A stretch of DNA of 64,000 nucleotides, from positions 8,742,122 through 8,806,121 of the forward strand of contig MU056063.1 in NCBI GenBank assembly GCA_013239625.1. The letters run 5' to 3'. The notes beneath the pieces are model-generated. The model saw only the letters and a program-made list of their open reading frames with translations. It searched no databases and was not told where the DNA came from. This document shows positions 15,091-43,100 of the stretch, piece by piece. Made by a program: the position numbers and the translations under genes. This stretch comes from Lama guanicoe (taxonomy: Eukaryota). The stretch's first letter is position 1. Every line of letters begins with the position of its first letter.

Positions 15091-15095
15091 CATCT

Positions 15096-17053: not shown

Positions 17054-17525
17054 GGGGAGGTGGTTCAAGACGGCAGTGTAGGAAGATCCTGAACTCACCT
17101 CCTTGCACAGACATGACAGGTCTGCAGATACCATGTGAAAAGGATCATACACCATGATCAAGTGGGATTCATCCCAGAGATGCAAGGATGGTTCTGTATT
17201 CGCAAATCAATCAATTTGATACACCACATTCACAAAGTGAAGGATGAAAATCATATGATCATCTCAATAGATGCAGAAAAAGAATTTGGTAAAATTCAAC
17301 ATCCATTGATGATAAAAACTCTTAACAAGGTGGATTATAGATGGGTTATACCTCAGCATAATAAAGGCTGTGTGTGACAAGCTCACAGCTAAAATCAGTA
17401 TCTTGTAATAACCTGTAACGGGAAAGAATCTGAAAAAGAATATATATACGTGTAACCAAATCACTTTGCTGCTCACCTGAAACTAACACAACATTGTAAA
17501 TCAACTCTGCTTCAATTAAAAAAAA
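17054..17525 (+). mobile_element. Tripartite internally deleted mini-L1 (5' start, RT fragment, 3' end, polyA)
   Basis: 5' part ggttcaagacggcagtgtaggaagatcctgaactcacctcct; RT peptide [62 protein letters not shown]; last ~130 bp similar to 15445-15570 and ending in A8. Confidence 0.85.
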
Positions 17526-17656
17526 GTGATACTTAGGAAAGGCTGTCTAGGATCACATCCTGAGGGAAAGGGCCACACTGGGTGCCACAGGGCTCAGGCA
17601 ACACGGTGGGAGCAGTGTGAGAGAGGGTGACGGGCTGTGCCAGCAAAACTCATCAC

Positions 17657-17854
17657 NNNNNNNNNNNNNNNNNNNNNNNNNNNNNNNNNNNNNNNNNNNN
17701 NNNNNNNNNNNNNNNNNNNNNNNNNNNNNNNNNNNNNNNNNNNNNNNNNNNNNNNNNNNNNNNNNNNNNNNNNNNNNNNNNNNNNNNNNNNNNNNNNNNN
17801 NNNNNNNNNNNNNNNNNNNNNNNNNNNNNNNNNNNNNNNNNNNNNNNNNNNNNN
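17657..17854. other. Assembly gap (198 N)
   Basis: Run of n. Confidence 1.
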
Positions 17855-19069: not shown

Positions 19070-19330
19070 CTTTCTTCCTGAGAGACTCCAAACTGGAGAT
19101 GTGAGTGCAAGACATTTATTGGGGGAGCTTTGGGGACGAACACCCGTGGGCTTGAGAAGCTGGGCTGGTGCGTCCCCAGCAAAGGCCTCAGAGAGTAGTG
19201 CTGAATTGGAGCAGGGGGCCAGGAGGTGGGTGACTGGGGTGAGGCAGCTTGCTCCACCCGAGGGCAGTTGCCTGGCCGGAGACTTGGCTGGAGACCGACC
19301 GCTCACATCCATCCCCTCAGCGTCTGGAGG
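19070..19330. mobile_element. Possible decayed ERVL-class LTR fragment
   Basis: 'gagatgtgagtgcaagacatttattgggggag...aacacccgtgg' recalls old ERVL LTRs; family not resolvable by eye. Confidence 0.35.
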
Positions 19331-19899
19331 CCCATGCCCAGGCTCTCCCACACCCCAGTTCTCATGCTTGTTCACCAGACTGATAACCACCTGTCCTGGG
19401 GCTCTCAGCATCCTGAATGGCTTCCATGTAGCTCCAGGCTCTTCCCCAGAGGGCTCTTGTCATGGCTGGGGCGGGGGGGCCTCGCCCCATCTCCTGGTTG
19501 TACTGGTCCAGTCACCCTCTAGGAGCTGGTGGCCGGTGATCTCAGCACCCATCTTACACATGTCCAGGCTTGTGGACTCTAATCCCAGTGACCACACCGC
19601 AGTACTGGTACTGGAGAACCTCCACATGTGATCACAAAGAGTTGAATCTTTAGTTATTTCTGTTACCTGGACAACACAATCCGAGGTCAGATGAGAATCC
19701 AACCAAAAAGGCTTCTGTGATTATTGCATGAACAGGTAGTGAACTTCAGGAAAATGGAAAGGAATTTGGCATAAGGCAATCTTCTTGGAAAGGGGTTAGT
19801 CTTATCAGAATTTAAATGTATGTCTGAAATTCTGTGTTTCAAATCCTACATAAAATCCTGTTTATAACCCTAAATAGATACAAGCACACAGATGGAGGT

Positions 19900-20020
19900 C
19901 ATGCAGTTTAGAGGAAAGAGCATTGGACCAGGGTGGGGCCTTGGGTGAGACACCTTGCTAACAGGCCTCAGGTTCTTCACCTGTAAACTGAGGGTATTAA
20001 ACTAGATCATTTCTGAAGGA
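19900..20020 (+). mobile_element. MIR/MIR3 fragment
   Basis: 'gaggaaagagcattggacc...ggcctcaggttcttcacctgtaaactgagggtattaaactagatcatttctgaagg'. Confidence 0.65.
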
Positions 20021-20097
20021 TTAGATCTGTGATGTGCAGTGAAAACTCTTAGCAACCCTGAGTCACGGACTGCCCGACTCCATCCCAGCTGGGTACT

Positions 20098-20660
20098 GAT
20101 TAATTCAACAAACACTACTCTCCTCCCAGGGCTGTCGGGGTGTCGCACAGAATGAAAGAATGAGAAGTAAGGCCCTTGATGCTCTTACAGCCTAACAGGG
20201 CGGCTTGGACAGTGGACAAATGATTGGGAAGCTAGAATCAAGAGTATTTCCATAAGGAAGCACACACATAGGTTTTTTCTTGTTGCTATTACTTTGTTTT
20301 TTCATATTTTTTGGTGGGGGGCAGCAAGGATGAGATCAAAAGAGGAAAACAGCCCTGCTGCTGGTTGGCACCCAGAGGAGAGTTTCATGGATGAAGTGGC
20401 ATTTGATGTTGTCTTAGGGACCTGGCACATGGCAGAAAATTGCAAGTCTAGGTGCTGTACACAGAAAGGCTAAGGAAAGGAGGTAAAACGTAGGGCAGTT
20501 TCTTGGTTGCTTTGGTTAGAATGGTGGGTTCTCATGAAGGGTATTGGGAGATTAAGTGGGAAGGTAGTTTTGACAGTCATTGCAAAGGGCCTTGAACATC
20601 AGGATTTGGTTTCCATTAAGTACACAAGGTAGGGGATAAGCACTTTCTAAATAATAGGAG
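20098..20660 (-). mobile_element. Decayed L2
   Basis: 'taattcaacaaacac' 3' terminus, then 'ttcatggatgaagtggcatttga' and 'agggccttgaacatcagg...tttggtttccatt'. Confidence 0.6.
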
Positions 20661-20679
20661 GACATAAGAAATGTTTTTT

Positions 20680-21070
20680 TAAACCTCTCTTCTTCAGACT
20701 AGACAATTTCAGTTGATCAGAATTCAATTTGCTGCCTCTTTCTTCTACAACTTTTGCATGTTGTTAAGTCATATTGTACTTCTCAGTTCTAGAATTTCTT
20801 TTTTAAAAATACTTTCACTATCTCTGCTGAGATTCTCCATCAGCTCACTCATTATGTCCACCTTTTCCTTTAAGTCCTTGAACATATTAATACTGGGTGT
20901 CCCAAAGTCTTTATCCATTAATTCCAACATCTGGGTTGTCTTGGGAGGGGGTCTCTTTCTATTGTCTACTTTTTCCTGGATTATTGGGTCACATTTTCCT
21001 TCTTCTTCATGTCTGGTAATGCTTTATTGAATGCTGAACACTGTACTGGTATGCTATAGAAGATCTGCTT
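20680..21070 (-). mobile_element. Old L1M 5'/ORF1-region fragment
   Basis: T-rich 'attgtacttctcagttctagaatttc...tctctgctgagattctccatc...aattccaacatctggg...tggtaatgctttattgaatgctgaacactgt'. Confidence 0.65.
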
Positions 21071-21642
21071 TATAAAATCCGTCCATTACAGCAGCCCAGA
21101 CAGCACTGGAGGCATTTCAATGGCATAAATCTGTGTCCTGGACTGGACCATTTCCTCTTCAGAACAAGGATCTTATTCCAGAACCAGCAGGAGGATGGTG
21201 GTGCCCTGGGCAGATGGTTATGATTAGCTCTGTGATAAATGGACCACAATTTCCTTCTCTTAAAGTGCTTCTGATTTGAATGGTTCACTACTTAATGGAA
21301 TTTCACAGATGTTCTGAAGCCCACTTGCCCTCTTTGAAGTTTGGAGATCCTGCTAAGTTTGGGTGGGTATGGCCTCTACCACATTGATGCAGCCATCAGC
21401 CCTGAAACTATGCTTGGGAAATGACTCCCCACCAACTCCTCTTGGCAAAATTGTGAAACATTTGCCTTCCCCCTCCATCTTAGTCAATGCCTGCCCGTGC
21501 AGATCTACGCTTCATCTGGGGTTTTACCCACTTTTGTCAACCCATTCCCTCACTGGGAAGACCATTTTGTACAGAAATTTGTACTAGGCTGTGAGTGGCT
21601 GGCCCACCTCCCCTCGGTAAGCACTCACAACTAGTTTCAGTA

Positions 21643-21890
21643 ATAGTGTTGTAGTGATTGTAAGTACAGGACTCTGAAGTCAGATTTCCTGGGTTCCAAT
21701 TCTGGTTCAATCATTTACAAGCTATGTGACTTTGCGCAGATTAACTATCTCTGTACCTCAGTTGTCTCATTAGTAACATTATGAGTATTAATAGAACCCA
21801 CTCAGAATGTAAGGATTAAGTGAGACGGTATGTATCAAGTGCTTATAACAGTGCTTGGTGCATAGAAAGTGCCGGTGAATACAAGCTATT
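21643..21890 (+). mobile_element. Near full-length MIR
   Basis: 'caggactctgaagtcagatttcctgggttccaattctgg...gctatgtgactttgcgcag...tctctgtacctcagtt...aagtgcttataacagtgcttggtgcatag'. Confidence 0.85.
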
Positions 21891-24800
21891 TTCCATTTTT
21901 GGAATTTTTTTCCATTTATGAAAAGATTAGAAAACAAAAGAAAAACAGAAAGGGGAAATAAAAACCATAAGCCACCCATTCTGACGCATTTTCTTGGTCT
22001 TTTATTTGTACCGACATAGATATCTTTTAAAATGAAGTTAGGAGAGCAGTGTTTACATGCTGCTTATGGTTTATCTTCTTCCTTACCTGTGGCCTTAATG
22101 AGTCTTAAACCCCATTCTTTTTAATGGATTCAAGGTATCCCACTGAATGGATGGAGCATAGTTAAATCAGCTAATCCTCTAATATCTGACCAATATTCAC
22201 TATTACAAATACTGTGCCTGATCGGCTTTATGCCTGTTTGATGATATCCTTCTTAGCAACCCACAAGGTGCAGTGACGGAGTTAAAGAGCATGAGATGGC
22301 TGAGACTGGGTGCATGTGAGTGACGCCTGTGAGCATCCTTTAACTCAGATGGGACTTCTGGTTTGGTTTCAGGTAAGGACCCAGCCTGATTTTGAATGCC
22401 GGGTGTTCCTGGTGCACTGAGATAGACCACCCCCACCCTGGCCTATTGCCCACAAGCCGCGCACCAAGCTTTTCAGATCCGAGGGTTCAAACACGCTTGC
22501 CTCGGTCCTCCTGGACAGCTGAGATGCCGCCCAAGGCCAGAGGGTGCTTGTCTGGTTAGAGACTGGTTGCCTGGTCAACGGACACTCCCCTGCAGATTTT
22601 GCTGACTGGCACCTGCTCAGTTCCTGTCTGGCATCATCAGAATTTGATGAAAATCTTTGGTTTACGATTTGTTTTGCATTTTCCTCCTCGTCTGGACTTC
22701 TGCAATTGGGACCTGAGGCTGTGAGGCCCAGCAGAAAAGGGAGCAGCCCCAGACTGAGTGACTCAGCCACAGGCCTCGGTTTCTCTGAGTATGGCTGAGA
22801 GCCTGGCCGCGGCCAGGACACTCGGCTCCTCAGCTAAGCGGGGAGACTCCTGCCACCTCCAACTGCACTTGGCACATGACTGAAGGGACACTAGGCACCG
22901 CGTCACCTCCAACCCATCTCTCCGGGCCAGTGGGGGCTGGTGACGGAGGACACTTCCCGTGAATCCGAGCCCCTCCAAATGGAAGGGTCCTGGCCCTCCC
23001 CCTGCCCCTCTTAAGGGGCAGCTGTCGCTGAGCCTCATCTGCATTCAGCTAAATACTATGTCTTGGTAACATTTTTGATCTTCATTAATTATAGCTCAGG
23101 AAAGCTGGCAAAGACAACCTGTCTCTTTCATATAAACAAGATTAATTGCACGGTTCCTGCAGAAAATGAGCGACCAGCAGTTTAACAAAAAATGTTTGTC
23201 TTTAAGCAGCCTTTGGATAAAAAAAAAATTAAAACTGTTACAGGAAGTGCGGGAGCTGCCAAATTAGCGCGCCCGCAGGCCTCGCCCTCATTATCAGACT
23301 GAAGGAACACACGCCCCTGGCCTTTCATCCTCCTCCAGGCCCGGCAACGGGGAGGGGAAGAAAGCAACTTAGCACAAAGCAGTGTCTCTGAAGTCTGGAA
23401 TGCAGCCGGCTGTTTGAAGGTGGATTTGCACCCGACACCTTGCCCTGAGCTCCCTGTCAGGACTCGCCGGTCTTCACACCCCCCAGACTGCCGTTCTGGG
23501 CTCTTCATCTCATAACGACCACATAATCCAAGAAAAGTGCACGCAGTATCACGATCACTTTCATTAATAACCATGAAATAGGCCTTCCTTCAGCAAATGA
23601 AAAAACCCAAACATCAAATCCGTGCAGCGGGCTGGGGCCGGGGCTCCTGGGGGTGGAGCAAGATGCACAGCTGGCGGGCACCTCACTGCCACCCTGCCAC
23701 TCCAGGGTCTCTGACCCTCACTGAGAGAAGGTGGAGCCCAGCTGGGCACTTGCTCCCCGACCCTCACCCCGGTGCTCAAGAGGCCTGCTGGCATCCAGCC
23801 TTCTGCTGGGATCCCCTGGGGCGGTTGGGGACCCGGGGGTCTAAAGTGAGGCTTCTGCCCGGGATGCTGTGACCTTAATCAGAAAGACCACCGGGGAGAG
23901 CCAGTTCTCCAGGCTCGGGGCTGGCTGAGGGGAGACTGCAGGTTTGGGGCAGGTCGACGGTGCAGTTGGTGCAAGTCCGGGAGCTGCAGCCACTAAAGAA
24001 ATACCCTCGCACGCCCACAGGGGGTGGCCTCCATGGCTGGAAGCTGGAGGCTGGAGAGCCGGAGGCGTGCTGGGGTGGTGATGTGCTTTCCCGGAGAAAG
24101 AGGGGCGCAGAGGGACATGGGACTTTCCGAGGTTGGGGATGCAGGGACACAGCGACCTGATGCCCGGAGACGGGTCTGAAACACGGACACCAGCCAGCCC
24201 CTCGCTGATGCTGACACAGTCCAGGGTGGGGCAGGGGGAGGGGAGTGGACCCAGCTATCTGCTGTCACTGTTGCCTCCCCAGGCGGGAGGAGCTGGGACG
24301 AGGGGTCTCCCTGTGGCCCGGGTGGGGGCCTCCTGGATTTTCATGACCAGAACGTTGCCTCTCTCTGCTTTTCTGTGATGTTCAAACCCTGTGCTGAGAT
24401 GGCTCAGTCTGTAAGGTTCCCAGGGACCCTGGTTCCAAAGGAAGTCCCTGGGCTGAGGAGCTTTGGGGTCCCACAACCCTCGGGGCGTCCAGCCAGGCCC
24501 ACAGCAGTGCTGGTGCCCCCAGGACGCGGCCCTGGAAGCAGGCAGAGTGGCCGGGGCTGGTGGGCAGTCTCAGTGGATCGGCGAGGCTCTCCCCAGACCG
24601 AGCCAGGCGTGGTTACATAGCGCCTGGCACAGAACAGCATATGAAAACCTCCGGGGGTCTTCACCTCGGGACTTGGGCCCTCTCTTGAAATACTAGTACA
24701 CACACATCCAAGTGTAAGAGGATTTACGCACGCACGCGCCGTGGCCTGGTACTTCTCTGCTGCACATGGAACTGCGCACTCAATATCCCATCCAGGGAGG

Positions 24801-25139
24801 ATGCTGGTCTCCATGCGTGAAGTGACTCCACGACGTACTAACAGAGGGGCTGGCGCTTTGAGGACACACTGCCCCAGACCCCGGCCAGCAACCAGGGAGG
24901 AAGGCAGCCCGGGGAGTCTCCTGACAGCCAGCGACAAGTGGGCTGGGGTCTGAGGGGCAGTCCGGCCCGGCCTAGCCCCTCATGAGCACCAGGTCTCTCA
25001 ACGGGTGCTTTCTGGAACTCAGGGGGTGTGGGGGAGGGGCCTGGTGGGGGCTCACTTCTGCCTCCACTGTCCCCTCTGCAAACAGAAAAGTGGGCCGTGC
25101 CCACATCACCTGGCCTCAGTCATTGAGATTTTCCCCCCA

Positions 25140-25500
25140 TTTTTTCACATTTTCCTGACTATAAAAACTCTATAGAAAGCCTTCAAGTATGTAAAAGTAT
25201 AAAGAAGAAACCTGAAAGTCATGTAGAGTCCTGCCATCAGGAACTGCTGAGATTTTGATACACTTTTAAAATTTCATATGCACATGAAACTGAGAATCGT
25301 GTTGTGTATTGCGTGTTGTATCCTTTCTGTCTAACGACTTAACGAGCATCTCCTTGGTCGCCACATCCTGCTCAGGGACACAGCTGCGTACTCAGATTCC
25401 ACTGCACGGATAGGCCACGAGCAGTTAATGCACCCCACGGTCTGACAGTCACATGTATCCCGGTGTCTCTGACTACTGTCATCAATGTCACAACGTCGGA
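25140..25500 (-). mobile_element. Decayed L1ME-like 3' fragment
   Basis: 'aaaagtataaagaagaaa...aaactgagaatcgtgttgtgtattg' pattern; by eye only. Confidence 0.4.
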
Positions 25501-28500
25501 ATTAACACAGCGTGAGGGGCGCTAACTGTCCCCTTAGACACACTCCCCGTGGCAGAACTGCTGGGTCTGAGACCCAGAGATGTGGGGGCAGGGGGTGCAG
25601 AGTCCGCAGAGTGGACCCCACTGCTGAGCCCTGCGGTCCTGGGAGGGGTCAGAGTCCCAGAGAGAAGAGCAGGAGGACAGGACCATGTCCGACGCCCTCC
25701 CTCCTCAACAAGGCAGGAGTCCGGGTCACACCCAGCCTGTGGAAGCTCCGCGCGGGGCCCTGGGCTCCTCGATGGCCCTGGGGCGGCCTGTCGGGAGGTC
25801 TGGGGCCCCTCCCTGAGGACAACCTGCACCTGCTCCTCCCCAGACTCAGCTGCTCTGGGACTTGCCAGCGTCATCTTAACCCAAGTCACTGCTTGTGACA
25901 ATCTGATGACACCATGGGGTTGTTGTGTGTCTTGCAGATAAACGGAGTCAAAGAGGTCAGGTCAACTGTCTTTGTTCGCACAACCACTAAGGGCTGACGG
26001 GACTCGCACCGGAACTTCCCGCCCAAGACGACCGCCTCCTGGCGGCCCCGCTGCGCCTCCATCCCAGCCCGACCTGACGCACACGCTTCTCAAGGCCAGC
26101 ATACCACCACCTCATGGTCACATGGGATTAAAAGCTCAAATTCAGAGCCCCTCGGTCTTTATCGGTTACGACAAGGATGTACGAACACCCTGGCATTGTC
26201 CTGGGGCGAGGGGGCAGCCTCGGGGACGCCGAGGGAAGCAGCTGTGGCGCTTGACCTCCTGCCAGTCATTTCCGCAGCAGCAACCTGACAGAGCCAAACG
26301 CTGTGGCTCTGCCTGGCAGTCAAGGCTGGCCAGTCACTCAGGTCCCCCTTAGGCCAGCCCAGAAGGAGCGCCAGGCCGTCTCCAGGCCCTAACTTAGCTC
26401 AGCGGAGACCACATGCAGAGATGCTTCAGAATTTGGGAAACTGCACCATGAAGTTTCTTAATGACGTTCTGGGCAAATGTGAAGTGGCTTCTATCAGTGA
26501 AAAGATCTCACAAATTCCAAATCTGGTTAAGTGGACGTTCGTAAGAGCCATGAGAAAAAATTCAATGTTTCAATATGCCTTTGAAGGCCATCTGCAATCT
26601 GTCTCTGGGGTGCCCAGAGCAGACATTCTTAACTTTAAGAAGATGTGAATTGTAAGAACTACAAGAGGAAATTTTAGAAATTAACCTTCTGGTTTGAGAT
26701 CCTTGAAGATTCACGTGATTGTGAGAAACAGTGGGACCCCCTCCCCATGACCCCAGTGCTCTCATCTTACAAAACTGTGGCAGGGTATCTCCTGGGTAGT
26801 CAGGAGGCGAACGGTTACGAGAGGACTTTCCAGAGACTTGATAAAACTCTGTCGACTGCGAGAGCAGAACGAACCTGAGGGCCTTCAGGACTTGTGACCA
26901 ATTCGGGGCAATGCCCAGGCTGAGGGTCTCGTGGGAGGGCCTGGCCCCGCCCCACCCCCCGCAAATAGGGGCCCTTCCATTCTTCTACCCTGAATAGCCA
27001 AGGGCGGGAGGAGGGAATGACGGTGCCCAAGGCCCCTGGACAAACGGTGGACCAGGAGGCCGCGAGGTCCTGCCAGCTCCAGCCCTGGCCGCTCCTGCTC
27101 TCCCCTCTCCACCCACTTCCTCGGCCACAAGATGCAGCGGCTTAGCCTGGCGAGTCCAGTACGGCAGCCACTGTCCACATGTGTGGCTAAGCACCTGAAC
27201 ACAGCTAATGTGACTGGGGAACAGAGTCTTCCATGTGAATTAACCTTGATCGTTTTACACATACAGACATGTGTGGCCAGTGGCTACCCCACTGGCAGGA
27301 CAGAAAGTCCTTCAACCTCTCCACTTCGTGAATGTTCTGAGATATCTAGTTTGTCTGGGTGGCCGTCTGGCCTCCTGTGGGATGGGAGGAGAGCCTCAGT
27401 CCCGGGGAAGCCGGGGCTCGAGACTTAGGGCTTCTCCACGGCGGGTCTGTGTCCCGTCGGACGCACACCCGGTTCGCTTGACCTCCAGATGAAACGCATC
27501 CTTGTGCGTTGCACAGCCGCCTCCAGCAACCCACCTGTTCTCTCATCCCCCTCGCAAATGGTGTGAACCCAAAATGTGGGAAATGAAAGCTCACACTCTG
27601 AACAGCAAGACAGGCGCTTCTGGAAAACCCCATGGTAACCAGTGACTGAAATTAGGGTAATTTTTTGATGACTAAGAGGCTCCTATTTAAAGAACTAAGC
27701 GTCTATGAGCAAAAGGAGCAGCAAATAGCAAACCAACTCCCGGAAGGAGAACACACGGAATAAATCCAGACAGAAGCTCACAACACACTGGACTCGACAC
27801 GGTCTGTTAGCCGTCCTCCCCGCCCCCCCCCCCCGCGCGGCCCCCGCCCGGGGCCGGGCTGCTCCCAAGAGACCTGGTCCTTCTCCATCAACGCCCCCCC
27901 GACTGCAGACAGTTCTGCACACCACACAGCATGACAAAAACACCCCTTAGAATAAGGGGTAATTCATTCATTCCAATTAAACCCCGTAAAGTTCAGCTTA
28001 TTATTTAAATACTTATCTATTTAAGAATCTGAGGCTCTTTCTCCCCAGTAGCACAACCTGCTTATTTCACACTAACTTCCTAAAAGCTTACGCTTTATTT
28101 AGTTCCCACAGACAGTTAAACACTGTCTCCGGGACTGTCTTTTCCCAGCCCCGGGGTCAGTTATGTCCTTTAATAACCACAGGCACAGGTCCCCGCTCGA
28201 CAGGCGCACTGCACACGAGGGCGATGCTAAGCCCTCACGGGCCTTCTCCGACCCCCACAGGTGGGAGAAGGACCCGGGCTGTCCCTCTTACCTGCGGGTG
28301 TCTGGTGGCCCCTGCATCCTGCTTTCAGGTCCTCTGCAGAGGAAGCCTGCCCTTCCTTGGGTTTATGGTAACGGGGTGTCTGATGCAGGAGGGGTGTGGC
28401 TCCCCGTGCAGGATGGCAGGTGAAGACAGGGAGCGTGGGGTTTTGTCACTTCACAGGTGAAATCCAATACTGGGCCTTTCATGTCTCTCGCCCCTCCCCA

Positions 28501-30509
28501 CCCCTCCCCGAACCTGTTTCTTCTGCACCCGCTCACCCCCACCCCCAGGCAAAGGTATATTTCCTGGAAACTGGAAAAACCAGGTACTAGCAACCTCAGA
28601 TCAGTGCTAATTAAATTAGGCTGTAAAATTCAGGCTGTGAGTGACGGCTCCCCCGTTCCGACTGGGCCCCTAACAGGCCTAGTGAGTGCCTCTGATGCCA
28701 CCCTGGTCCGGGGTGGATGGGGCTCAGGCCACAAGCACATCAAGGGTTCTGAGCAGACTGACTTGGAAGCAAGCCTCTCCTCCTGGCCTTTTCTGCCCCA
28801 GCTTCCATGTCACGTGTTAAGTTTCAAGAGCTCGAATAAGTACCCGCGTAGCATTTCATTAGCCACTCAAGTTCCATCTTTGTTATTAACATCGTATTGG
28901 GTGATCTTTACAATAAGCACACGGACAGTGGGTGAGGGCGGCGCTGAGTTGCCGCCTGACTTCGGGAGCCCTTCCCAGGCTGAGTCCCCCTGAGGTGACA
29001 CTCTTGGGGACACAGGGGGTCCATCACCTGATGTCTCGCTGGGCCCCCGTGCAGTCCTGGGGGCCAGAGCCTGGACATCAGGATGCCAGCTGTAACAGCG
29101 GGCAGCTCTGCTGTCTCTGGTTTGTTCCCACGGAGGGAACCCTATCTCGTCTCAGAAGCACCCGGCCATGGCACGCTGTCATTGGGCACGGAGGAGAGGG
29201 GCTTCCGCTCTGTGGCTCTGCCTGTGGGGAGGGAAGGTGGCCCACCCTCCCTTGAGCTACACGTGAGGTTGCAGAACCAGGAGCTGGCCCTGGAAGGCAG
29301 CAGGGGGAGGACTGGCCCTGGGAGAGGACGCTGATCCACACAGGACAGCAGCTCCACAACGTGGCTGGGGCCAAGGAGGGGCAGCAAGCAGGACCCCTTC
29401 CCCAGGGCCACCCGGGCACTCAGTACTTCTGAGATCAGGTCCCTGGGGTAGTCAGCTGTGGGTTCATATTTCACGAGAAAACCAGAAAAAAGTTAAGAAT
29501 ATCAAAGGTAGAATTTTCTTTTGCTTCAGAACTTCATGTCCCCCGAGGCTGCGGTGGGCCGGGATTTGAGGTCCCGCAGGCTGGAGGGGGCTAGATGGGG
29601 AGTCTTGCTGCTCTCTGGTCTTCAAAGCGAGTGTTTATGGCTTTCTTGATTGTCTTTTTATCCTCTTTTGTTATCAAAGAGGCTTGTAACAGTCCTGAGT
29701 GCAACAAGTGACTTCCTGATTTTTCTGCCAAACAAGGTGGTTATAAAACTTGAAAGAAATTGGGCACTGAGCGAAAGTGCCTTTGCAGAAAAATTTAAGG
29801 TGATTTTGATCCTTTAATTGCCTAAATTTTACCTCATAAACCAACCTCTTTCCCCCTTTTCCTCAAAGCCTCCAACGACACGGTCTACGGAGTTAAACCA
29901 GACTGGAGCTGCTTGTTCGAGAGCCGCCAGGATGAGACTCCCTCCCGGACCAGCGTGTGTGGGAGCAGCGGCCTCTCGGAGGCCAAGGGTGGAAACCCTG
30001 CAGATTAGCGGTGCTAAGGCCTGTCAGATGTGGCTTTGTGGGACCCCCCCACCGCCCGCAGCCACAGAGTGTGGAGGCAAGGTGGACGTGGGGGGAGCCG
30101 AGCTCACCATGCATGGACAGAGAGATGCGGGGGGAGGAGCACACGGAAGTGGCTCTGAGCCTCGACAGTGCCAGGGCGGCCTGGGTCTAAGTGTGGAGCC
30201 TCCAGCCTGGCCCTGGACGTCCCATCTGTCCTCACGGACTGACGTGAGGCGGTGAGGTTGGTCTCACCTACACACTGGAACCCGAGGTTGTAAAACAGTG
30301 AAGCAACAGATCAGGAACTGGAACCTGTGGTGGGTGGTATTTATCTAAACACCAGCTTTTGTAAGAACCAAATGAGAAGGGGGTTGAAGTTGTAAGAGCA
30401 GCCTCAGCCCTGGACCCAGCAGCGGGTTAACATCCCTCAGCCTGGCCCGGGCCATACCTCCTCCAGGCAGGCTGCCGGATCACAGCTTCCAATGGGTTAG
30501 GACCCAAGC

Positions 30510-30660
30510 CTGCTCTCTGCTCAACATGTGTCCACAGACCGGCAACCTCAGCGTCACCTGTTAGAAGGGTGAGGTCTCTACCTGCCCAGGTCTCCTGAAT
30601 CAGAATCTGCCTCTTAACCAGGTTCCCGGGTGATTCAGCGACCACGGACACCTGAGGAGG
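30510..30660. mobile_element. MER5A-like hAT-Charlie MITE
   Basis: 'gtccacagaccggcaacctcagcgtcacctg...ctgaatcagaatctgcctcttaaccaggttcccgggtgattca'. Confidence 0.75.
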
Positions 30661-33600
30661 GATGGAGTCGCTCCCAGGTTTCCAGCCTCCCGGGTGCACG
30701 GCTCCAACAGTAAAAAGACTGCATGAGCGTCACACACGTGACGTTCCACTGCACCGATCTGCTTTATGTACATGGTACATATACACATGTGTGGAAAGTT
30801 GAGAAGCAGGAGGTTAGGGTGGAAAACCATTCATTTACTAACGGTGCAAAGTCGTTTGGTTGTTTAAACTTTGAAAACCAGGGTCGTAGCATCTCGTGTC
30901 TGTTGAGAGAGGTTTCTCCTCCTCGGTCATCACTGTGAGGAGTGGTGAGGGGTCAGGCCCACAGGAAGCCCCGCGCTTGCTGGGGTTGAGGCCGAGGGGC
31001 CAGTAAGAGCTCCCCGTCTCCCCCTTGACAGGAGTCTGGGGGCAGGCGTCTCAGAACTCCCCCGTTCCCCCCCGCCAGAGTGCGTCTGGCCTCAGCCTCC
31101 AGCTCCAAGGTCCAGTCCCGGCTCTTCCTCTGGCTGCGGGAGAAACCAGCCAGCACGCCTTCCACACACAGTGCACACACGCCACATTGACCGGACTCAG
31201 GAAACCACCCAGCCTTGGATTCGAGGCACCTGGATGATGGCACAGTCCTTGGGGATCTCGAGGGGAGGGGCCCTGGGCCTGGCTGCGCCGTTGGGAAGCC
31301 CAGGCTCCGAGAAGGAGGATTTGGGCCTCGGAGAGAAGATAACCCAGAAGATTTTAAGTTCACGCCTCTGCAGGACTTGAAGTCGTTTGATTGTCCTAAA
31401 CATGCTTTTCAAAAGTGCCTCTAAGTATCTCGTTCCCTCAGATGCGTCTGGCAGGTCCTGGGTCGCAAGCTGAATAAACTGCTCAGTTTCCGGGAGCCGT
31501 GGGTTCAGCCCCCCGACAGCCGGACGCCCCACGGCCCCGAGATGGGGCACCTCTGCACCACCTCCGGGACCTGCCCGTCTCGAGGCACAAGCCCGTGGGC
31601 CCCGCCCCGTCGGGGTTGCGGGGACAAAGGTAGCACCAGTTTGACGTTTCCCTTCTGCTTCTGCTCTCCTCTCTGCCTTGGCCCCACTCTTCAGATACAC
31701 ATCGGAGTCTGTTTCTCAAGACCCCACGTGGAACTGCCCATCTCCCTGCCCCGTTGATTTGTACGACTCGGGTGTGAGGCTGAAGTAGCTCCGGCTCCGG
31801 GAGGACAGGACAGGGAGCCGGCTCGGGGGCTGGCACTTCTCAGACGTTCATGGGGCCAGACCCAAGCGGGGCCTCGGCACAGAGGGGTCCCAGCCCTGAG
31901 GATGGGGGTGCAGCGGGCGTCGCTCAGAGCAGACAGCTGCAACACAGCCAGCGAGGCTATGAAGTGGGGCAGTTTGCTGCAGCTTCGCACTTTATTCCCC
32001 TTATTTCTCAGACCAATTTTTGATTAAGTGTGGGAATTTCACCTTGAGTCCCTGAAGAAAAGGTATTACTACATGCACAGCCGGCAGCATCTTGGTGCTG
32101 AAAGAAATACAAAAGGTGTGAACGATGAGAAGCCACAGTCCCAGGGCCTCACCGTCCAGTGGGAGAGACAGAAGGATAGAAACAGAAGAGCAGTGCCCAG
32201 CGGGATGACATCGCCGGTCAGAAGGCGTCAAGGGGAACCAGCACCCGTGGGTCCCCAGGACGGTCCAACTCCACACGGGAAGGGACAGTGGGGGACCTCA
32301 GGGAAGGGCAGTGGACTGAAGGGGAGAGTCCGGCTCTGGGGCTGGGGCCTCCAATATGGAGTGGTTGCCATATGACCACGTTCTGGGGAGCCACAACGGT
32401 CCATGACGGGGCTGCTTAGAGCTGGAACTCTCAGGCCCACCCAGGCCCTTAGGAGTCAGGCCTGCACGTCCCCGTGGCCCAGGGTGCGTGTGAGGATGGA
32501 GAAGTTCTTCTTCGGGGTGGGAGGAGCCAGGGGAGGGCTTGCAACCAGGCTTAGGACAAGGAGCCCTTTCAGGATTGTTCATCTATGCATGTGAGCTCAG
32601 AGATCTGGCAGCCAGGAGCTGCGGGACTGAGCCCTGAAGCTGGAGGGAGAGTCCCGATGTCCTGCTGGAGGAACCGGCGGGGCGAGACCCACATGGAGGC
32701 ACCGGACAGGCCTGGGGAGCCGTGTTGGCCAGAGGTGGTCCACACTCTGCATGATCATTTGTCAGTTCCAAGGGGGAGCAGGGTTCACTGAGAGCTGGGG
32801 TTCTGGGCATCACCAGTTTCTCCCCACTCAGGGAACCCAGCAGAAAAACTAGGGCAGTGGTTACTTGAGGCTTCAGTAAAAGAAATGTTACTAGAATTTC
32901 TATAAGCCTAGAATTTCACATCATTAAAATAAGTTCAGAAAATGCACTTTAATTTGTTAGTGGTTCCAATAAAAGAAGACTCTCTGAACAATAATGTTTC
33001 ATCCTGGGAATCAACTACAAGACCAAACACATTTGGTGGAAATAGCTACCCTTCAGCAGGACAGAACGACCCATGAAAGGCTCCAAGACCTCGGTGGGGG
33101 TGGCCTTCCGCTTGTCCCACAGCAGATGAGGAAGGGGCGGTGAGGTCACTGGTCTCAGGGCTCAGAGAGTGAGGAGCCTGCAGGGTCACCGAGGGGAGAC
33201 CGGCCTTGGACACGGGTGGCCTGACTCCCAGGCCCATCTCAGCTCCCAGGCCTTCCTGCCTCTGGACGTGGGCCAGGAGAAGGGGGTGCAGTTTCCGCTC
33301 CGGGAAGGGGACACCTCCTGCCCGGTCTCCCCTTGGCCTTCTTGAATTTTCTTCTAGAGCTTTCTGAGCTGGGCATGCCCAGAACACAGCAACCTGTGCC
33401 CCAAACCCAAAAGTGGCTCCTACAAGGTGCTTTGTGGAGAGCAAGGCCTTAGGCAGAGAGAAGCAGGAGCAGTGTGAGGGTGACCTGCCACCAACAGCCT
33501 CCTCTGGCCTCCGCCCCCACTTCTATTGGCCAAATCCACCCGGGACCCTGTTGGTGCCGCCCACGCAGGAGCCTCCCAAACAGAGCAGGGAGTGGGCTGG

Positions 33601-35199
33601 AGGGTTGGGAAAGCCGAGTGCGGCGAGGACAGGACTGGGGCTCCTCTGTCTGGCTCAGCTGGGCCCCACATACAGCAGGTGCTCATAGCATTGGTGGAGG
33701 GGGTGGGAACTGCCCTGAGTGGAGGAGGGGGATGTGTGCCCACAGGTCTCCCCGCCCCGAGCAGGGCCACCGCTCTCGGCAGGCAGTAGGTCGTCAGCCC
33801 CAGAGGCCCGGGAGAGAGCTGGGGGCACAGGCTGGGGTGATTAAACCAACTTGCCAGATTCTGGCATGAGTGAAGGATGGTCGTAGGAAGTGGGTTTGGA
33901 GCAGCAGAAACACCACGCAGGCAGTCCTGATGCTGGGGCGTCTCAGTGTGGAGACGGGCTCGAAGGAAAAGGCAGAGGAAAGACAGAAAAGTCCCTCCTG
34001 GAGGCAGGGGGCGTCCACGGATTTGTTAGCACAGCTGCAAACTTGGTTAAATTAAACCCACAGAACAATCCGCACACAGAGCTGAAGGAAGCAGATGATG
34101 TGGACGTAAATGAGCACAGTTTGAAAGCTTTCCAAAAGGAAGCCATTAACCCGCAGGGCGGGGAGCAGACACCACATCTCCTGCGGGGCTCAGGCGGCTA
34201 CTGCTTCCTGAAGCCGACTGGTGCTAGCTCCAAAAACGCTCAGCGTTGAGGAAAACAAGATTCAACCCAACTCCCAGATGCCGGGCCACCGATGACACGA
34301 AGTCCCCCCACACACCCCATCTCTTTCTCCTCCTGCCAGTATCACTCACGCCCAGGGGCAGACCTCTCCCGCTGTGGATCAAGATACCTTCCAGCCAGCC
34401 TGGGAGTCAGACCAGCCCGCCACCGCCCTCCTTGCTGGGGCCGCAGGGGGCTGCCCGCGCCTCACTCCCCAGCATGGTCCCAGCCTCAGCCCAGCTACTT
34501 GGTTGTCGCATTTCACACACACCCAACCCAGGGAGCAGAGACACCCCCACCCAGGAATTCTGGGGCAGGGACTGCGCAGTTCAGGGCTGCTGTTTGTCCA
34601 AAACACAGTGAGTGAAGTGGTGGGAAGGGTGGAGTGAGGGCCCACTGCAGGGAGGCGTCAGCCGTGGGGCTGGGGGAGGAAAAGCCCTCCTGCCTCCCAC
34701 CGGGGGTTACACTAATTAGGAGGCAGAGCTGGTCCTTCCAGTGGAGTTTCTTCATTTGAATGTGTTTCCCGTGGTGGGGGGGCTGTGGCCGTACCGTGTG
34801 ATGGGGCCCCATGCCCGCCTCCCAGGCCTGGGGTGCGTGTGCCGTGGGCACCTGTGCTGTGGGCACCACAGGGTGGGCGTGGGGATCGTCCTGCATTCTC
34901 CAGCTGAAACCCAGCTGCGTCCCGTCTCCTGGTTGTTCTTTAACCTCAGCTCTTCCATCCCCTCCAGACTTGCTTCACTGACTCCAGACAGATCCCACGG
35001 GCTCACCAGAGTCACTCCCCGAAACCTGCGCTGGTGGCCCTCAGGGCACAGGCGGGAGTCCCCTTTCTGGAGGTGAGGGTGAGCCCGCCTCCTGTCCCTG
35101 CAGCGACCGTCACCCGCCAAGGCTAGGCTCGCGCCGTCCGTGATATTTACTTGACACTGTGGGCAGCGCCTTACGCAGGCGCTCTGCGGTGGGAGCTGC

Positions 35200-35370
35200 T
35201 ACTTTACACAGAGTGCAGCCAGGATGGGGGTGTCTGTGACACGGGGACCTGAGGGGGAGGAGGCGGCACCAGAGGTCCTGGGCAGGATCATTTGTGCAGA
35301 AGGAACAGCAGGGGCAGCGCTGTGGCGCATGTGAGGAGCAGCAGGGAGGCCGGTGTGGCTGGAGTGTGGC
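35200..35370 (-). mobile_element. L2 fragment
   Basis: 'gcagaaggaacagca...gaggagcagcagggaggccggtgtggctggagtg' resembles antisense L2. Confidence 0.55.
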
Positions 35371-38300
35371 CAGGGTGTTGCTGGTGGGGACAGCACTGCC
35401 CCGTCCTCCTCAGGACTCCTGCCCCATAAGTCAGGGTCTGGGGCCATTCTGGATCCTGGCCAGACCGACAGGCTGCTCCAGGGAAAGGCAGACCCCTCAG
35501 ACAGGCTTGGGTTCAGGAAACCAAAGTTCCAATGGACAAGTAGAGGCCCAGCTGGTATTAAGTTCAGCCCAGGGTGCACACCGAGTGTGCCAAGGGCTGA
35601 CACGGTCCCCAGCCCATTCTCAGGGCTCTGCCTGCCTTATCGCACACGATCCCACGAGTGAGCTCAGGTAACAGGTGGTCGTGACGGCCAGGACCGCCCG
35701 GGTTCCAGCCCCACACACGGAGCAGGACCTGTGCTCAGTCCCTCGCGGGCAGGAGGCTGCGCTCTGCCCTCATTCCTCACTGCCCCAGCCCAGCACCCCT
35801 TCCCGAGCCCTGCTTCTCGGTGGCTCCGTCCAGCCTGACACCCAAGGAGAGGGAAGGCTTCTGGAGTGAAGCAAACACAGCTTGGGCCCCCTGCAACCCT
35901 GATTCTGCCGTTGGGAGAAAAGGCGGCCCAGTGCTGGAAGGAGAAGGTTCTGCGCAGCGTCCTCTGCCCCCGGCCCACTGCCCAGGCTCTGCGGCCAGCC
36001 GGCAGGAGCGTCTGCTGAGGGGTCTCGGAGCTCAGCGCTGCCTAGGGTTTCAGAAATCTCTAAATCTCCCCACCTCTGAAAGGTTCTGATATAAAGTGAA
36101 ATCTCGTTGCAGCAGTGCCCCCGCCCCATCCCAGATCTAACCTCTGGAGGAGCCCAGGGAAGGTCCGGGTGGGAAGGTCCCAGCAGGACACGCTCCTGGG
36201 GTCGCTCGCCTCTGAGCCTCGGCCACGCACTCGAGAAGGAGCGACAGTCTATTTCACAGGCTGGCGTGTCCAGCAGAGGCTGGCTGAGCGCCGGCCGTGC
36301 GCCAGGCGCGTGCTGGTGCCGGTGCCGCTCCCCGTCCTCAGAGGCACTGAGCGGAGTCTGGCGCCCAGGGGAGTGTGTCCTCTTGTTTGTGTAACTGTGG
36401 GCTGTTTGTCCTACTTTCTCTTTTCCATCATGGGGCCGTGAGAGCAGAGGATAGGCCTATTTCTTTTAGATCCTCTTGTAAGAAATTGGGTAAGGTCAGG
36501 AGCACAGAGAAAGCCCCCAGGGAGACCGAAGAGTGCCTGCAGGTAAATAGGACGGCCGGCCCGGACTCAGGGTCCAGGCTCCAGGGGACACTGGGGAGGC
36601 AGTGGGAGGATGCTCAGCCCGACGGAGGCCTGCATCTCCAGGCCCTGCTCTTACTTAACTGATGCCGCGGGAGGCAAACAGCCAGTTCCTTAAGGAACAC
36701 GGATACATTTGTCGGTGTCTCGATTCTGTTGATCCTGTAAACATAAGGAGAGCCCAACATTCTACTGTTCTGAGTTTTGCAATCTTCACAAAATAAATAT
36801 TTGCCTTCAAAAGCAACAACTCAGATAACCATCAGGGTAACATTCTCGAGCGTCGTCCCCCACCCCCAAGCCAGGAGCTGAGGTCAGCGCAGAGAGCTGT
36901 GTGTGGTCTGTTGGATGATGACTTTCACGTGGAAACCTCAGGTTGGAAACCAACTGGCAGCCATTTGGAAACGTTTGGTCTCTCAGTTTCTAGATTTGAC
37001 TCAAAACCAAGAATCCCCAGTCCCTGGGACGTCCATTGGTTTCCTCCGTCCACCAGGTGAGGAGCAAAGTGGCTTAAGCGAGTGCTAACGGGGGATGAAG
37101 ACACTGCGAGGACCTCAGGGGTCGTGGGGACTGGACTGGCCCTGCCGGAGGCCACCGCGTAGTCAGACGCCCGCTGGGTGTTCACACACCTCAGGGACGG
37201 GTCTCTCTCCAAACCCCTCTAAGAATGAGGTAAGACTGTAAAGGAGTCCTGCCGATTTTAGATGACACAGTGACACACAGATGACACAGCCCAGCAGCAG
37301 AAAACCACGCCATGCAGACCTCGTGCCATTTATAGGTGCCACCCTGGGCCGCCGCCGCAGCCTCCTCTGGGCTGCGCTCTGCAGACAGGCCGGCTTTCTG
37401 CGGAGGGGGGAGCATCTAAATAGCCCCACAGTATCCATTCTGACTGGTTTTCTTCATTATGGACAAGAAGTTTTAGGAACAGTCATTTTGAGCCATTACT
37501 GAGAAATACATCTTAAAGAAAATGAACCTTGGGAGTCCTTTAAAAAAGTGCATTTCAATATTTTTAAGGATTAGGGTTTTCTGGGCCAGTGGTAATGTTC
37601 GTTAGGCAAGAACATGGACCTCAGTCATAACAGTAACCCATGAAGCCATCTCCACCAGGTAAACAAAACCTGCCACACCGACGGGCCTCTGTAGCCCGCC
37701 CCACCGTGCTGTGGTCTCCGGTATCGTCAGGAGCCCAGCCGGATGCCAGGCCACTGAGGCCCCCTCTGGCTCCTCCCTCAGGACCCGTCCATGAGCTGTC
37801 ACCACCCCACTTCCCACAGACAGGTCCCTTCCTGCCCAAAACATCTCCACGGCCCTGTTATGAGAGTGAACTGAGCCTGCCACGTGCTCGTGTCCATGTG
37901 CTGGATGGGTCCTGCGGCCAGGGCCACCCCGACTCCATGAGGGCGTGTGGAGTGGACGGAGCCACTCTGAGTTGTCCAGCCAGAACTAAAGCCCCAGCTC
38001 GAAATCAGTTCCCTGGCAACTCACCCGGCCGGGAGAGGAGGCTTCCTGACTGACCGTCAGGGCGCTGCTCTGCCCGCCCAGCCCTGCCTGTCTCCCAGTG
38101 CGGGGAAGCATGTCCCATCTCTCCCAGTGATGGGGGCAGGGGAGTGCATGGAGCTGGCGGAGGCTCGGAGCTCTGGGCTGACCGCTGGAGTATCCAGGAG
38201 GGCTGGAAGGGCCATGTTTGACTCTACGAGAATGTTAAGTGTTTTCTTTCTGGTTTGAGATTTCTAAAAATGTAAGCATTTGTTTCACATCAGTCTTCAA

Positions 38301-38799
38301 AATTTTTCTCAGAAGGGGCCCCTTTGTCATTATTAATTGCAAAGAGAGCAGATGTCGAATTCAAAGGCCAACTGCCCCTGCCACCAGCCCCCAGCCCCAC
38401 CAGCCACCTCTGTCCCACCAGCCCCACCTGTGCTCTCAGGAGGAGGCCACCTGCAGATCAGCTCATGGGAGCTGGGTTTCAAAACACACCACCTGGCTGC
38501 TGTAGGCACGGGTGGTCCCAGGATGGCCTGGGCAGTCCCACCGGCCTCAGTGAAACCCAGACTCCTCGCCGTGGCCTCCAGCTCTGCTCACTCTGCCCCC
38601 TGGTCTCCTCTCTCACCCCCACCTTCCCTCTGCTGTAGCCACACTGCCCTCCTGCTGGGGTGAGACCTCTTGGGTCCCCCCGCCAAGATTCCGTCCTCTC
38701 GAAAGGCCCCTCACTCTCTCCCAGGCTCTTTTCTGCTCACCGGCGTGCTTCTTCTCAGTGCTAGGTTTACTGAAGTCGTGTCCCAGGACTATGGCTCCT

Positions 38800-38937
38800 C
38801 TTTCCTCACTGGAAGGGGAGTGCCATGAAGCAGGGGCACTTCCCCACTGCCCACAGTGCTGTCGTGTCCCCACGTCCCGGGCAGTGCCTGCCACGGGGCA
38901 GATGCTCAGAATGACTTGTTGGACGAATGAATGAATG
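38800..38937 (+). mobile_element. L2 3' end
   Basis: 'tgtccccacgtcccgggcagtgcctgccacggggcagatgctcagaatgacttgttggacgaatgaatgaatg' with TGAA tail. Confidence 0.75.
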
Positions 38938-41900
38938 TACATTAAAACCATCATGACATCCAACCTCCTCTCTCTTGGGCGTGATGTTTAGGAAACGCGG
39001 AACTGGAATTCGGCAACACCAACCTGTTCGTAGTAGAGATCTGGCCTGACAGCTTCCAGACGGCGCCCTCTGGCTCGCATCTGCAACCGGGATGCGCGTG
39101 TCTGTCTTTACATCCTGAGAAGGTGCTTTATGCCAGGATTAAGGAGCTGCTGGCAGAAATCTCTCCCCATTGCTTCAGGAGGCTAATCTCTCACTTCAGA
39201 GTCTGGGCTCACCCTCGGCCTCTGAATCCAGCCCCTGAAGGGTTGAGCAGTGTCAATCCTGAGGGTCTAGAAACAGCACAGCTGAGCGTGTGGCACTGAG
39301 TCCGTGGGAGAGGGATGGGCGAGCAGGGTCCCTCCGCGCCAGGTGCAGAGCCAGGCCTGACGCAGGGTCGTGCCCACGCTCTCACCGCAAGGGCGTCTTC
39401 TCATTTCCCGTTGATCCGTCTGCTGGAGATGGAAAAGGCCTCCGGGTGGTTAGTTCTGTGAGAACCATGTGCCCAGACCTCGGGGCATTTCCAGGGGTCC
39501 CAGGCAGAGGTCTGGGCTGCTGCCCAGCTTGGAGCTGAGTGGTGTGTCTGACGACCCGGGCACCTGTGTCTGCCTGCGCGTTGGCCGGCGTGACTCCCTG
39601 TCCCTGTGTCCCTGACTCTGACTCGACGTGTGAGCAGAACTGGTGACCTTTCTCTGACATAGAGGATCCCACCCACCCGTCCACTGGCCATGTCTGTACT
39701 GAGTGCCCTGCACGTGCGAAGGACGCCCCGCAAACGCCTGGGGTGCTGGGGTCCTGTGTGCACCGCCTGGGGATGGCCCACCCTGCTTCCCAACCCGGGC
39801 CGAGCTGTCCCTAAGCTCTGATCCGGTGGGGTTACCCGCCCTGGGCAACGCCTGGTGACCTTGGGACGGACAGTGACGAGAAAGTAAATGCAGCACAGTC
39901 TCACCTGTACTGACGGGGGACATCGTGCACTTGGGAGGCCTGAACCCCGAGGCCACTGGAAATTTCCCTTAGTCGCTGGACTGTGTTAGACTGAACCACC
40001 TGAAGTTACCCGTGTTCAGCTGTGTCTGCTACAGACACACAGCAATGCCGCAGTTTCCCTGTCACCAAACATCTGTTGGGGTGACCCCCAAGAACGAAAC
40101 GTGGTGTATGGGCCGACATGACTGGGACCCGAGACCCACCTGCTGAAGCTGGTGGTGGCCCCCAGAGGTGGGGACAGAGGGCCTCTGCACCAGCTGGGCA
40201 CCGGGTGCTCTGCCCACGGCAGCTGCGGCTGGGGTCACAGTGTCATCGGCCCTGCGGGGCTGGACGGGCCTCTGATCCTCTCTAAGCCTCAATTCCCTTA
40301 CTTGAAAAGCAGAGAAGACGTGCATGAAGCTGTAAAAGGCAGAGGGGACGCAGTGCCTGGACTCCGTTCCTTTCCCTCACTCTAATTTTTAGGGAAATAA
40401 TAACTCGAGGTTGAGTGACAGCCCGACCTCGCTGTGCCGGGAGGAGCGCTCAGAGGCCAGGGCTTGGACTCTGCTTCCTAATTGACCTAATGTGCCAAGT
40501 GAGCTTAATGTGAGCTAATTAATGATGCTATCGGTGGTGGAATTACCACGGCAGAGCCGAAAACAGCATCAAAGCAACGAGCAGGCAGGTGTCCGCTGGA
40601 TAATTGAGGAAACTGGGGCCGCGAGGGTGCAGGCAGGACCCCAGAGGCTGGGTGGGGGGCAGAGGGAGACCGCGGGGCTGAGCCACTTAATTGCCAGGCT
40701 CCCAAAGCGCCACCCTGGTTACAGCTCCTGTGCTTGAACTGCAGGTTTCCCCGAGCCTTTGAAGCTGGGCTCCTGGGCATTTCCTTGAGAATGAACTCCA
40801 TTTTTTTTTTTTGAAACCACAAAACTCATTCACCTGGAGCCAGGAAGAAGACCCAGGTGACCTGGCTTTCATCTGTGGTCCTTTGGGACCAACGGAACTT
40901 TGTCGAGAAGATGCTCCCGAGTTAAGAGCCGGCGTGGTTTGTGCCTGTGAGGTCGGGGGCCGGGGACCAGGGCTGCCCTCCCCAGTGGTGCTATGAAGGG
41001 CAGGGGACACTGACTCTCCAGGAAGAGGGTGAGCTCCCGACACGTCTGAGCCTCACAAGTCTGTATCTTCCACAAATGAAAACACTGTTTACTTTTAGAA
41101 ACTGGGTCATAGCCAGAGAGTGAAAATCAAACGTTTCAGGGAAATCTTATTTACTTTCTCCTCCCAAAGACACGTGCTTCCAGGACTACCGCAAACTACG
41201 CCCCAGTACAGCCTGGCTCACTTGGGGGAGAGAGTGAGGGGTGTGCAGGGACCCCTGCTGCCCCAGCCCACGGCGGGGCCGTCTGCCTCCCCCCACCAGT
41301 GACAAGGGGCACGGGGCTCATCCCCCAGCTTTGATGAGGTGGACTCCGGTGGACTCTGCCAAGATGACACTTGGGAGGTTTTAAGTGGCCGTGGCTTAGA
41401 AATCTCAGAGCATCCAGTCGAGCAAAAAAACCTTTCTGTTATCTGAATTGAGCCCTTTACTCCTTTAGTTCATTATGCTTTTTTTTAACCTCTTTAATAT
41501 TTTGAATTCACTGCAGTTTCACACTTGGTTGGAAAGTGTCTCAGAATCCAACATCGAACCGCTAGGCGGTGGCGGCTGAGAGCGGTGGGGGCGGGGAGGT
41601 CTGGCTTCCTTGGCCCCCTCCTCAGCCCTTTCCTAAGTCCCCACCTCCTACCCGTGTCCCTCCAAGTCCCTCAAACTTCCCTGACGGAAGGCTCTGCCAA
41701 CACGTGTCCACACTCCAGCCCGGACTGTTCTAACCGTCCTTCTCAGACCCCTCACCTGCCGACCCGCTGCCCGAACACCTCTGGCCTCCGAGGAGTAGAT
41801 GCAGTGACCGTGGGGTGTGCCCACACTGCCCACTCTATCCGGGCAGAAGGTGGAAACCTTAGGCCGCAGGGAGAGCTGTAATCACCAGGTGCACGTCCAC

Positions 41901-42377
41901 CCTCTCCCCCTACCCTCCCCCAAAACACGGGGCCACGACCTCCGTCTCAGACTTGACTCAAACCCACACCTGGGGGGTGGCTCAGGGGACGGCAGTGGCG
42001 TGCAGCAGCAGAGCCCAGCGTGCCCAGCCCTGTGCGCCTCCCCCGCCTGCCAGCCTGGGGCCACCTGAGCAGCTCCCTTTCAGGCTCCCAGAGACCCCGG
42101 CTGAAATCTCAAGCCCGCTGAGCACACACACAGTTTGGCTCCTCAGCCAAATGCACAGCCAATAGCAAATGGGGTTGGTGGTGTTTTCCTGAAAACAAAG
42201 GAACAACCTCAGGTCTCAGAACTAGGAGCAGACGCACAGTCACCAGGAAGCTTGTTCAAACGCAACCCAAAAATGACACGCATTTCAAAAATGCATTCAG
42301 GTGGTCTCTGGAGATGACACGGCTGTCTCACCCACAGCCCAAGAGTTTAGCAAACCAAGAGCCAGGGCGAGGCTTAC

Positions 42378-42730
42378 CTGGACCCCATGGGAGAGTCCGT
42401 TTCCGATCCAAGCAGAAGGTGGTCCGTGAGGAAAGCCAGGAACGTCTTGCCGAGGCCACTCAGGTGGCCGCTCCGCCGTGTCTCTGAAGCAGGTGCTGGT
42501 GTGGTGGCGGCCGGCGGAGCTGCCAGGGCGGGCGAGGCGCCTCTCGGCTGTCAGGACCTCTCCTCCTGCTCCACGGGCTCCCTGACTCTCCCTTGACTGC
42601 CAGTCCCACCCGGAGCCAGAGGGAAAGTCGGCCCAGAGGCCTCTCTGCACACAGACTCACCCACACCACCTAGAGGCCTCTCCCAGCACGGGCGCCCGCC
42701 CAGCTCACACCTGGCTCCACCAGACACCCC
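42378..42730 (-). other. EDAR: EDAR non-coding exon 1 (5'UTR); 5' boundary approximate
   Basis: Ends at donor CAG|GTAAGC. Minus-strand blocks GAGCCAGGTGTG, GTGCTGGGAGAGGCCTCTAGGTGGTG and CCTGGCTTTCCTCACGGACCACCTTCTGCT match, in order, the human EDAR 5'UTR as I recall it. CpG-rich. Confidence 0.8.
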
Positions 42731-43100
42731 GTGGAATTGGTAAAATCACAGATTCCTTTCTTTGGTGGGGGTGGGAGCTGGGGGGCTTGCTTCTCCCAGA
42801 ACAACCAGAGCCTCTGGGCCCTGGAATGCTAGAAAGCTCAGTTAGCATTAAAGTACCATCACTCAAAATGTGATCCCCCAGGGACCCGCCACCGAGGCGG
42901 CCACAGGCAGGGCTCGCTTCCAGTTGGCTCTGAAGCCCTCGCTCTGTTCCTGCCCCGTCCTGCCTCCTCCCCCAAGTCCACTGCAGAACAAGCCCCCGGA
43001 CCGCACATCTCTCCTTCCCCGGCACCCTACACACCATATATACTCCACATAACTGATTCCAAACAGCCACACACACCCGCGGGACCTCGTGCCCCCCACG
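42680..43100 (-). promoter_or_regulatory. EDAR: Putative EDAR core/proximal promoter
   Basis: Positional call at the 5' end of exon 1. GGGCGG box at ~42696-42701; no clear TATA box seen. Confidence 0.55.

Follow-up and report, generated by a model that had tools for sequence, protein, structure and literature searches.

A four-codon upstream open reading frame ahead of EDAR in camelids, a candidate partial brake on translation

The EDAR leader in the window studied here, a 64,000-nucleotide stretch of Lama guanicoe DNA, contains one upstream AUG (uAUG), which opens a four-codon upstream open reading frame (uORF) that stops 14 nt ahead of the EDAR start. We hold, with middling confidence, that this uORF constitutively and partially brakes the translation of EDAR. 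New here are the EDAR uORF itself and a predicted hairpin, made by splicing, around its AUG; uORFs as a class are well known, and that of EDAR belongs to a very common one, as about half of mammalian mRNAs have uORFs (predicted for 59.3% of transcripts in human and 48.5% in mouse). Searches of a largely open-access body of literature found no published EDAR uORF. The supplements of PMC7253449 and PMC11057154 hold no EDAR row, and EDAR is missing from the human Ribo-seq ORF table of PMC10032668, in which the control PLAG1 is present, an absence that says little about a four-codon frame in a gene of low expression.

EDAR lies on the minus strand of the window. Its non-coding exon 1 (42378..42824) is separated by a 37.9-kb GT-AG intron (4501..42377) from exon 2 (4432..4500), which comprises 18 nt of leader and 17 codons that begin at the main ATG (4482-4480) and encode the N-terminus of camelid EDAR proteins. 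Exon 3 (3732..3854) encodes a Leu as in Vicugna, where Camelus has Pro, which points to a South American camelid; exon 4 (3015..3196) is 100% identical to camelid EDAR proteins among the best 120 of 225 matches. The coding part of exons 2 and 3 has only one ATG, and the stretch bearing the uORF is single-copy in the genome (G000). The 3´ end of exon 1 is seen in RNA. Its 5´ limit comes from a contig of RNA run X1 that extends 184 nt past 42640 to about 42824, which makes the exon at least 447 nt long if the contig is colinear with the window; contigs cannot show a start site. Exon 1 (42824-42378) has a GC content of 65% and a CpG observed/expected ratio of 0.46; it is not a CpG island, and CpG decay is plausible.

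The uORF ATG is located at 42388-42386 on the minus strand, 11 nt ahead of the junction in the leader. The exon 1 portion of the uORF (42378..42388) includes this ATG and 11 of the 12 coding nucleotides and is followed immediately by a GT donor; the exon 2 portion (4497..4500), immediately preceded by an AG acceptor, supplies the last coding base at 4500 and the stop, TAA, at 4499-4497. Two marks of an AUG uORF are present: the AUG stands in the mature mRNA ahead of the main AUG, as seen in a junction contig from a related taxon in one of three RNA runs, and the frame, which starts at c.-29 and is out of frame with EDAR, has its own stop before the main AUG. An N-terminal extension of EDAR from the uATG was rejected because the uATG is out of frame. 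There is no second ATG on the minus strand from 42848 to 42378 (42847-42389 is ATG-free). A preliminary description had read from the letters a sole exon 1 ATG and an M-G-S-R-stop frame, with exon 2 supplying the stop 14 nt before the EDAR start, and both points are borne out by the joined sequence. It had also stressed that the uORF spans the exon 1/exon 2 junction, which is right as anatomy, but the crossing carries no special meaning for the peptide. Because intron 1 and exon 2 begin with the same four letters, the peptide is independent of splicing; unspliced RNA encodes an identical M-G-S-R-stop, and a splice-dependent peptide was therefore rejected. An ACG at 42400-42398 (minus strand, c.-41), in strong context, in the uORF frame and just before the hairpin described below, is a possible near-cognate second entry.

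The 42378 to 4500 junction, for which confirmation in skin RNA had been proposed, is used, as shown by one RNA run of a related taxon, albeit from reproductive tract. Three RNA runs (X1, X3, and X4) and one DNA run (X16), out of 24, were compared with 42340-42640. A 96-nt contig from X1, at a depth of 80.7, matches 42403-42374 with 0 differences and carries 66 further letters beyond the exon end, of which the 30 shown equal window positions 4467-4496 (30/30). Run X3 contains unspliced RNA through the donor at a depth of 3.4, and the X4 contigs stop short of the donor, leaving the junction seen in one of three RNA runs. The X1 and X3 samples are labelled reproductive tract, not skin. The uATG is retained in the RNA contigs of both; the window differs from X1 at 6 of 267 positions and from X3 at 7 of 301, with none listed at the ATG or the hairpin arm. 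The source taxon of X1 is camelid-like and about 2% divergent from the window, and X1 and X3 have three differences in common with an organism designated A; we infer that their source is an Old World camel. Six DNA runs of the nearest organism contain only 0.80-0.86 of the words, and X16 gave no contig on the stretch, an outcome that carries no weight as evidence. The uATG is present in two camelid-like taxa.

Measured against the FACS-seq table of PMC4299517, the context of the uAUG reaches 90 (83-98) and that of the main start 127 (117-137). The uAUG context occupies row 19,411 of about 65,536 sorted by efficiency, within the top 30%, better than the "intermediate" grade it had first been given. 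With k = 0.86 from the same source, predicted capture at the uAUG is 0.71-0.84, on a scale built with a reporter lacking structure; the EDAR uAUG, by contrast, is predicted to be paired. Judged from the sequence, the uORF is probably translated. The accessible text of a human uORF study (10.1101/2025.07.28.667205) reports that uORFs ending <50 nt from the main ORF show a larger protein deficit (D 0.127 vs 0.092) and that the inactive uORF of CUL2 became repressive once its spacer was cut from 156 to 9 nt; in the same study, a single uORF has little effect at the population level, and the strength of the context is not significant (D 0.063). Excerpts from other work state that mRNAs with a leader junction plus a uORF have the lowest translation (PMC5961209), that short spacers accompany less DENR-dependent re-initiation (PMC6547434) and that short distances may also favour re-initiation while factors remain bound (PMC10275272).

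If the uORF is a brake, scanning ribosomes would melt a predicted 12-bp hairpin, and most of them, a predicted 70-85%, would initiate at the uAUG and terminate after making M-G-S-R. The stop would be too near the main AUG for initiator tRNA to be reloaded, and EDAR would be made mainly by the 15-30% of ribosomes that leak past the uAUG, plus some re-initiation. As no further in-frame Met occurs until far past the signal peptide, late re-initiation would not be expected to rescue the receptor.

The hairpin in question is predicted when the spliced leader is folded: 42395-42384 pairs with 4495-4484 in a 12-bp stem of -23.0 kcal/mol, with 11 Watson-Crick pairs, a single wobble that involves the U of the uAUG, and an 11-nt loop that contains the junction and the uORF stop. 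The predicted 5´ arm (42384..42395) contains the uAUG, whose unpaired probability is about 0.01, while the predicted 3´ arm (4484..4495) includes the -3 A of the main start and stops 1 nt short of its AUG. The arms are 38 kb apart in the gene, and the predicted structure cannot form before splicing. The stem is stabler than chance, although this was noticed post hoc: its energy was reached by 28 of 12,736 mock junctions, 14 of 5,918 GC-matched ones and 0 of 5,000 shuffles, as well as by 2 of 476 ends that resemble donors and 1 of 2,302 starts that resemble acceptors (0.04-0.4% of mock junctions). Two coding EDAR junctions form helices of just 5 and 6 bp. X1 and X3 keep every letter of the 5´ arm, and X1 also every letter of the 3´ arm, with 5-7 differences in the vicinity. 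For sheep, all eight most-parsimonious back-translations of a leader-derived peptide fold into a shifted, junction-spanning hairpin (-17.8 to -23.6 kcal/mol), a result biased to camelid codons; when codons are chosen freely, the median is -14.0 and 2,933 of 5,000 back-translations reach 8 spanning pairs. In sheep, three outer pairs are broken. A 7-bp hairpin within exon 1 alone (z 0.58) was discarded, as it disappears in the spliced context. Replacing the wobble U by C strengthens the predicted fold (-27.2 vs -25.4 kcal/mol), and changing the uATG to AAG weakens it (-25.4 to -21.7 kcal/mol). Because the AAG change weakens the hairpin, the ATG-to-AAG reporter that had been proposed would be confounded; the hairpin thus changes the required design of a uORF test.

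Outside camelids, gene models with N-terminal extensions served as a read-out of the leader sequence. Among 298 EDAR proteins, 68 have an N-terminal extension of at least 10 residues, and one of these, sheep P0186, maps convincingly to exon 1. It aligns to 42485-42378 with 44% identity over 36 residues and at least nine substitutions in the last 51 nt, and it has Gly at the camelid His codon that carries the ATG. None of 5000 back-translations of the P0186 peptide yields an ATG anywhere in the terminal 30 nt of sheep exon 1 or in the exon 2 leader. Because sheep, the single outgroup, lacks an ATG at the same place, the uATG does not show the deep conservation of a mammalian uORF kept outside its lineage. 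Lineage restriction had been suggested before; the sheep model, which excludes the ATG, and the camelid-like taxon at about 2% divergence, which keeps it, agree with that, within the reach of one outgroup. A 12-residue pangolin match to exon 1 (E 0.015) was dropped as unconvincing. Searching with the peptide of sheep exon 1 turned up no additional exon 1 read-through models, a search of representatives gave three unrelated matches, and a metagenome scan for the exon 1 motif returned 0 matches. Ruminant exon 2, judging from P0078, P0103, P0186 and P0217, seemingly begins with GTG followed by Thr. Because this gives TGA in the uORF frame, the stop is likely older than the uATG, which likely arose on the camelid line before a pre-existing stop, although one outgroup cannot separate gain from loss. 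The wobble partner of the uAUG is the G of a CpG and a C in place of the U completes the stem, which suggests that the uATG possibly originated inside the stem when a CpG decayed, turning ACG into ATG.

Rather than a brake, the uORF could be a near-neutral passenger, a chance mutation fixed in the camelid ancestor, mostly bypassed or compensated and of no effect on coat, teeth or glands; we consider this a tentative and somewhat unlikely reading. The commonness of predicted uORFs fits it, as do the absence of the uATG in sheep and the expectation that one ATG plus a near stop arises by chance: 1264 of 5000 dinucleotide shuffles of the 465-nt leader have 0 or 1 ATG (mean 2.2), and 76 of 464 ATGs in intron 1 reach a stop within four codons. 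Nor would the stop need selection, since the ruminant GTG-Thr start of exon 2 also gives one in frame. However, the uORF would be expected to carry a real cost, given its good context and its short spacer, the hairpin arms are unchanged amid nearby differences, and the leader is otherwise ATG-free over 460 nt, compared to a mean of 4.3 ATGs in 44 GC-matched intron windows (none with 0, four with 1). The lone ATG is thus unremarkable relative to shuffles, yet low relative to these windows.

The hairpin could instead be the selected element, one that slows scanning at the EDAR start, with the uAUG a by-product tolerated as a wobble pair, but we think this distinctly unlikely. The scarcity of equally stable mock junctions, the short helices at the coding EDAR junctions and the folding of all eight parsimonious sheep sequences argue for such an element; the post hoc discovery, a rate of about 0.2% that gives several genes per genome by chance, and the weaker free back-translations of sheep argue against it. 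Hairpins of such strength far from the cap are also usually melted by scanning (Kozak), which weighs against it further. Any effect might alternatively lie at the level of RNA or isoforms, with the uORF stop feeding nonsense-mediated decay or a different leader exon in skin bypassing the uORF; this we hold to be very unlikely. The stop (4497) does lie 65 nt upstream of the next junction (exon 2 end, 4432), and annotated EDAR models of primates, carnivores and camelids begin from other exons, with homologous donors at 28292 and 40834 in the window. Yet very short uORFs usually escape nonsense-mediated decay, the leader with spliced exon 1 is readily seen at the contig depth given above, and the other leader exons are known here from sequence homology alone. 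A partial brake by the uORF therefore stays our preferred reading.

Among known systems, as described in the accessible portions of their sources, the HOXA11 and extended CUL2 reporters (10.1101/2025.07.28.667205) resemble EDAR in having one AUG uORF of intermediate Kozak class with a stop <50 nt from the main AUG; they were tested experimentally, whereas the EDAR uORF has four codons, sits in a predicted stem and is known from sequence. EDAR also shares a leader junction and a uAUG, 11 nt before it, with a class of mRNAs that makes up 29% of the total in the available text of PMC5961209 and is often conserved between human and mouse, unlike the EDAR uATG, which is missing in sheep. The first uORF of ATF4/GCN4 is likewise very short and, by the excerpted account of PMC10275272, favours 40S retention; those genes, however, have spacers of tens to hundreds of nucleotides and a second inhibitory uORF. 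Because EDAR has a 14-nt spacer, a single ATG and no second inhibitory uORF, no stress switch of this type is expected. Stalling uORFs of the arginine attenuator peptide type, in the same excerpt, are single uORFs ahead of the main ORF, as in EDAR, but depend on their peptide sequence; with four residues that are not kept in sheep, a peptide function of M-G-S-R is improbable.

Two candidate alternative leader exons lie in intron 1. The preliminary description, although it correctly saw an anatomy that fits a repressive uORF, overlooked both these and the junction hairpin. The first (28292..28410), on the minus strand and known here from sequence, is homologous to a leader exon of primates and carnivores and has a strong donor: eleven primate EDAR models, human among them, match 28406-28374, and the donor at 28292 aligns with their exon end. 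From its ATG at 28317 (context 123), a 9-codon uORF would run to the TAA that also closes the four-codon frame. This ATG is in frame in the primate and carnivore models; here it lies 26 nt from the donor and so falls out of frame, possibly through a 1-nt deletion. The second (40834..41030, minus strand) is homologous to a marmoset model exon (E 1e-8); two marmoset models match 41028-40834, and translation from its ATG at 40872 (context 89) would share the EDAR frame and add 19 residues ahead of the signal peptide. Either candidate exon would bypass or replace the uORF. Older camelid models that start with ML before exon 2 have two candidate donors in the window; ATG-CTG-GT at 63764-63759 and 6164-6159 (minus strand) are candidate sources of the older alpaca model of this kind. 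Models starting with MQ before exon 2 have no candidate donor in the window. A combined scheme would be a splice-assembled dial of EDAR dose, in which the decoy AUG and the context of the main start sit in one stem, the hairpin predates the AUG that camelids gained within it, and the amount of receptor in skin depends on which of three leader exons is used (giving the four-codon uORF, a stronger 9-codon uORF that shares its stop, or an in-frame extension), with consequences for fleece, teeth or glands; we consider this scheme very doubtful.

How thick hair grows and how many glands form depend on the strength of EDAR signalling, according to the available text on mouse V370A (PMC13560965). If true, a brake shared by camelids would give work on fibre traits a candidate that is simple and can be edited, and would show cleanly how a uORF is born in a developmental gene; if neutral, the uORF is one among thousands alike. 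There is as yet no link between the EDAR uORF and a phenotype.

Further along the gene, judged by eye, intron 4 contains simple repeats rich in GGT/GGA at 2940-2100 and a tRNA-derived SINE-like stretch near 1560-1450 (both minus strand). Among camelid EDAR isoforms, P0007, P0121 and P0125 differ from P0008 and P0009 by one Ala (449 vs 448 aa), as if by a tandem 3-nt acceptor shift.
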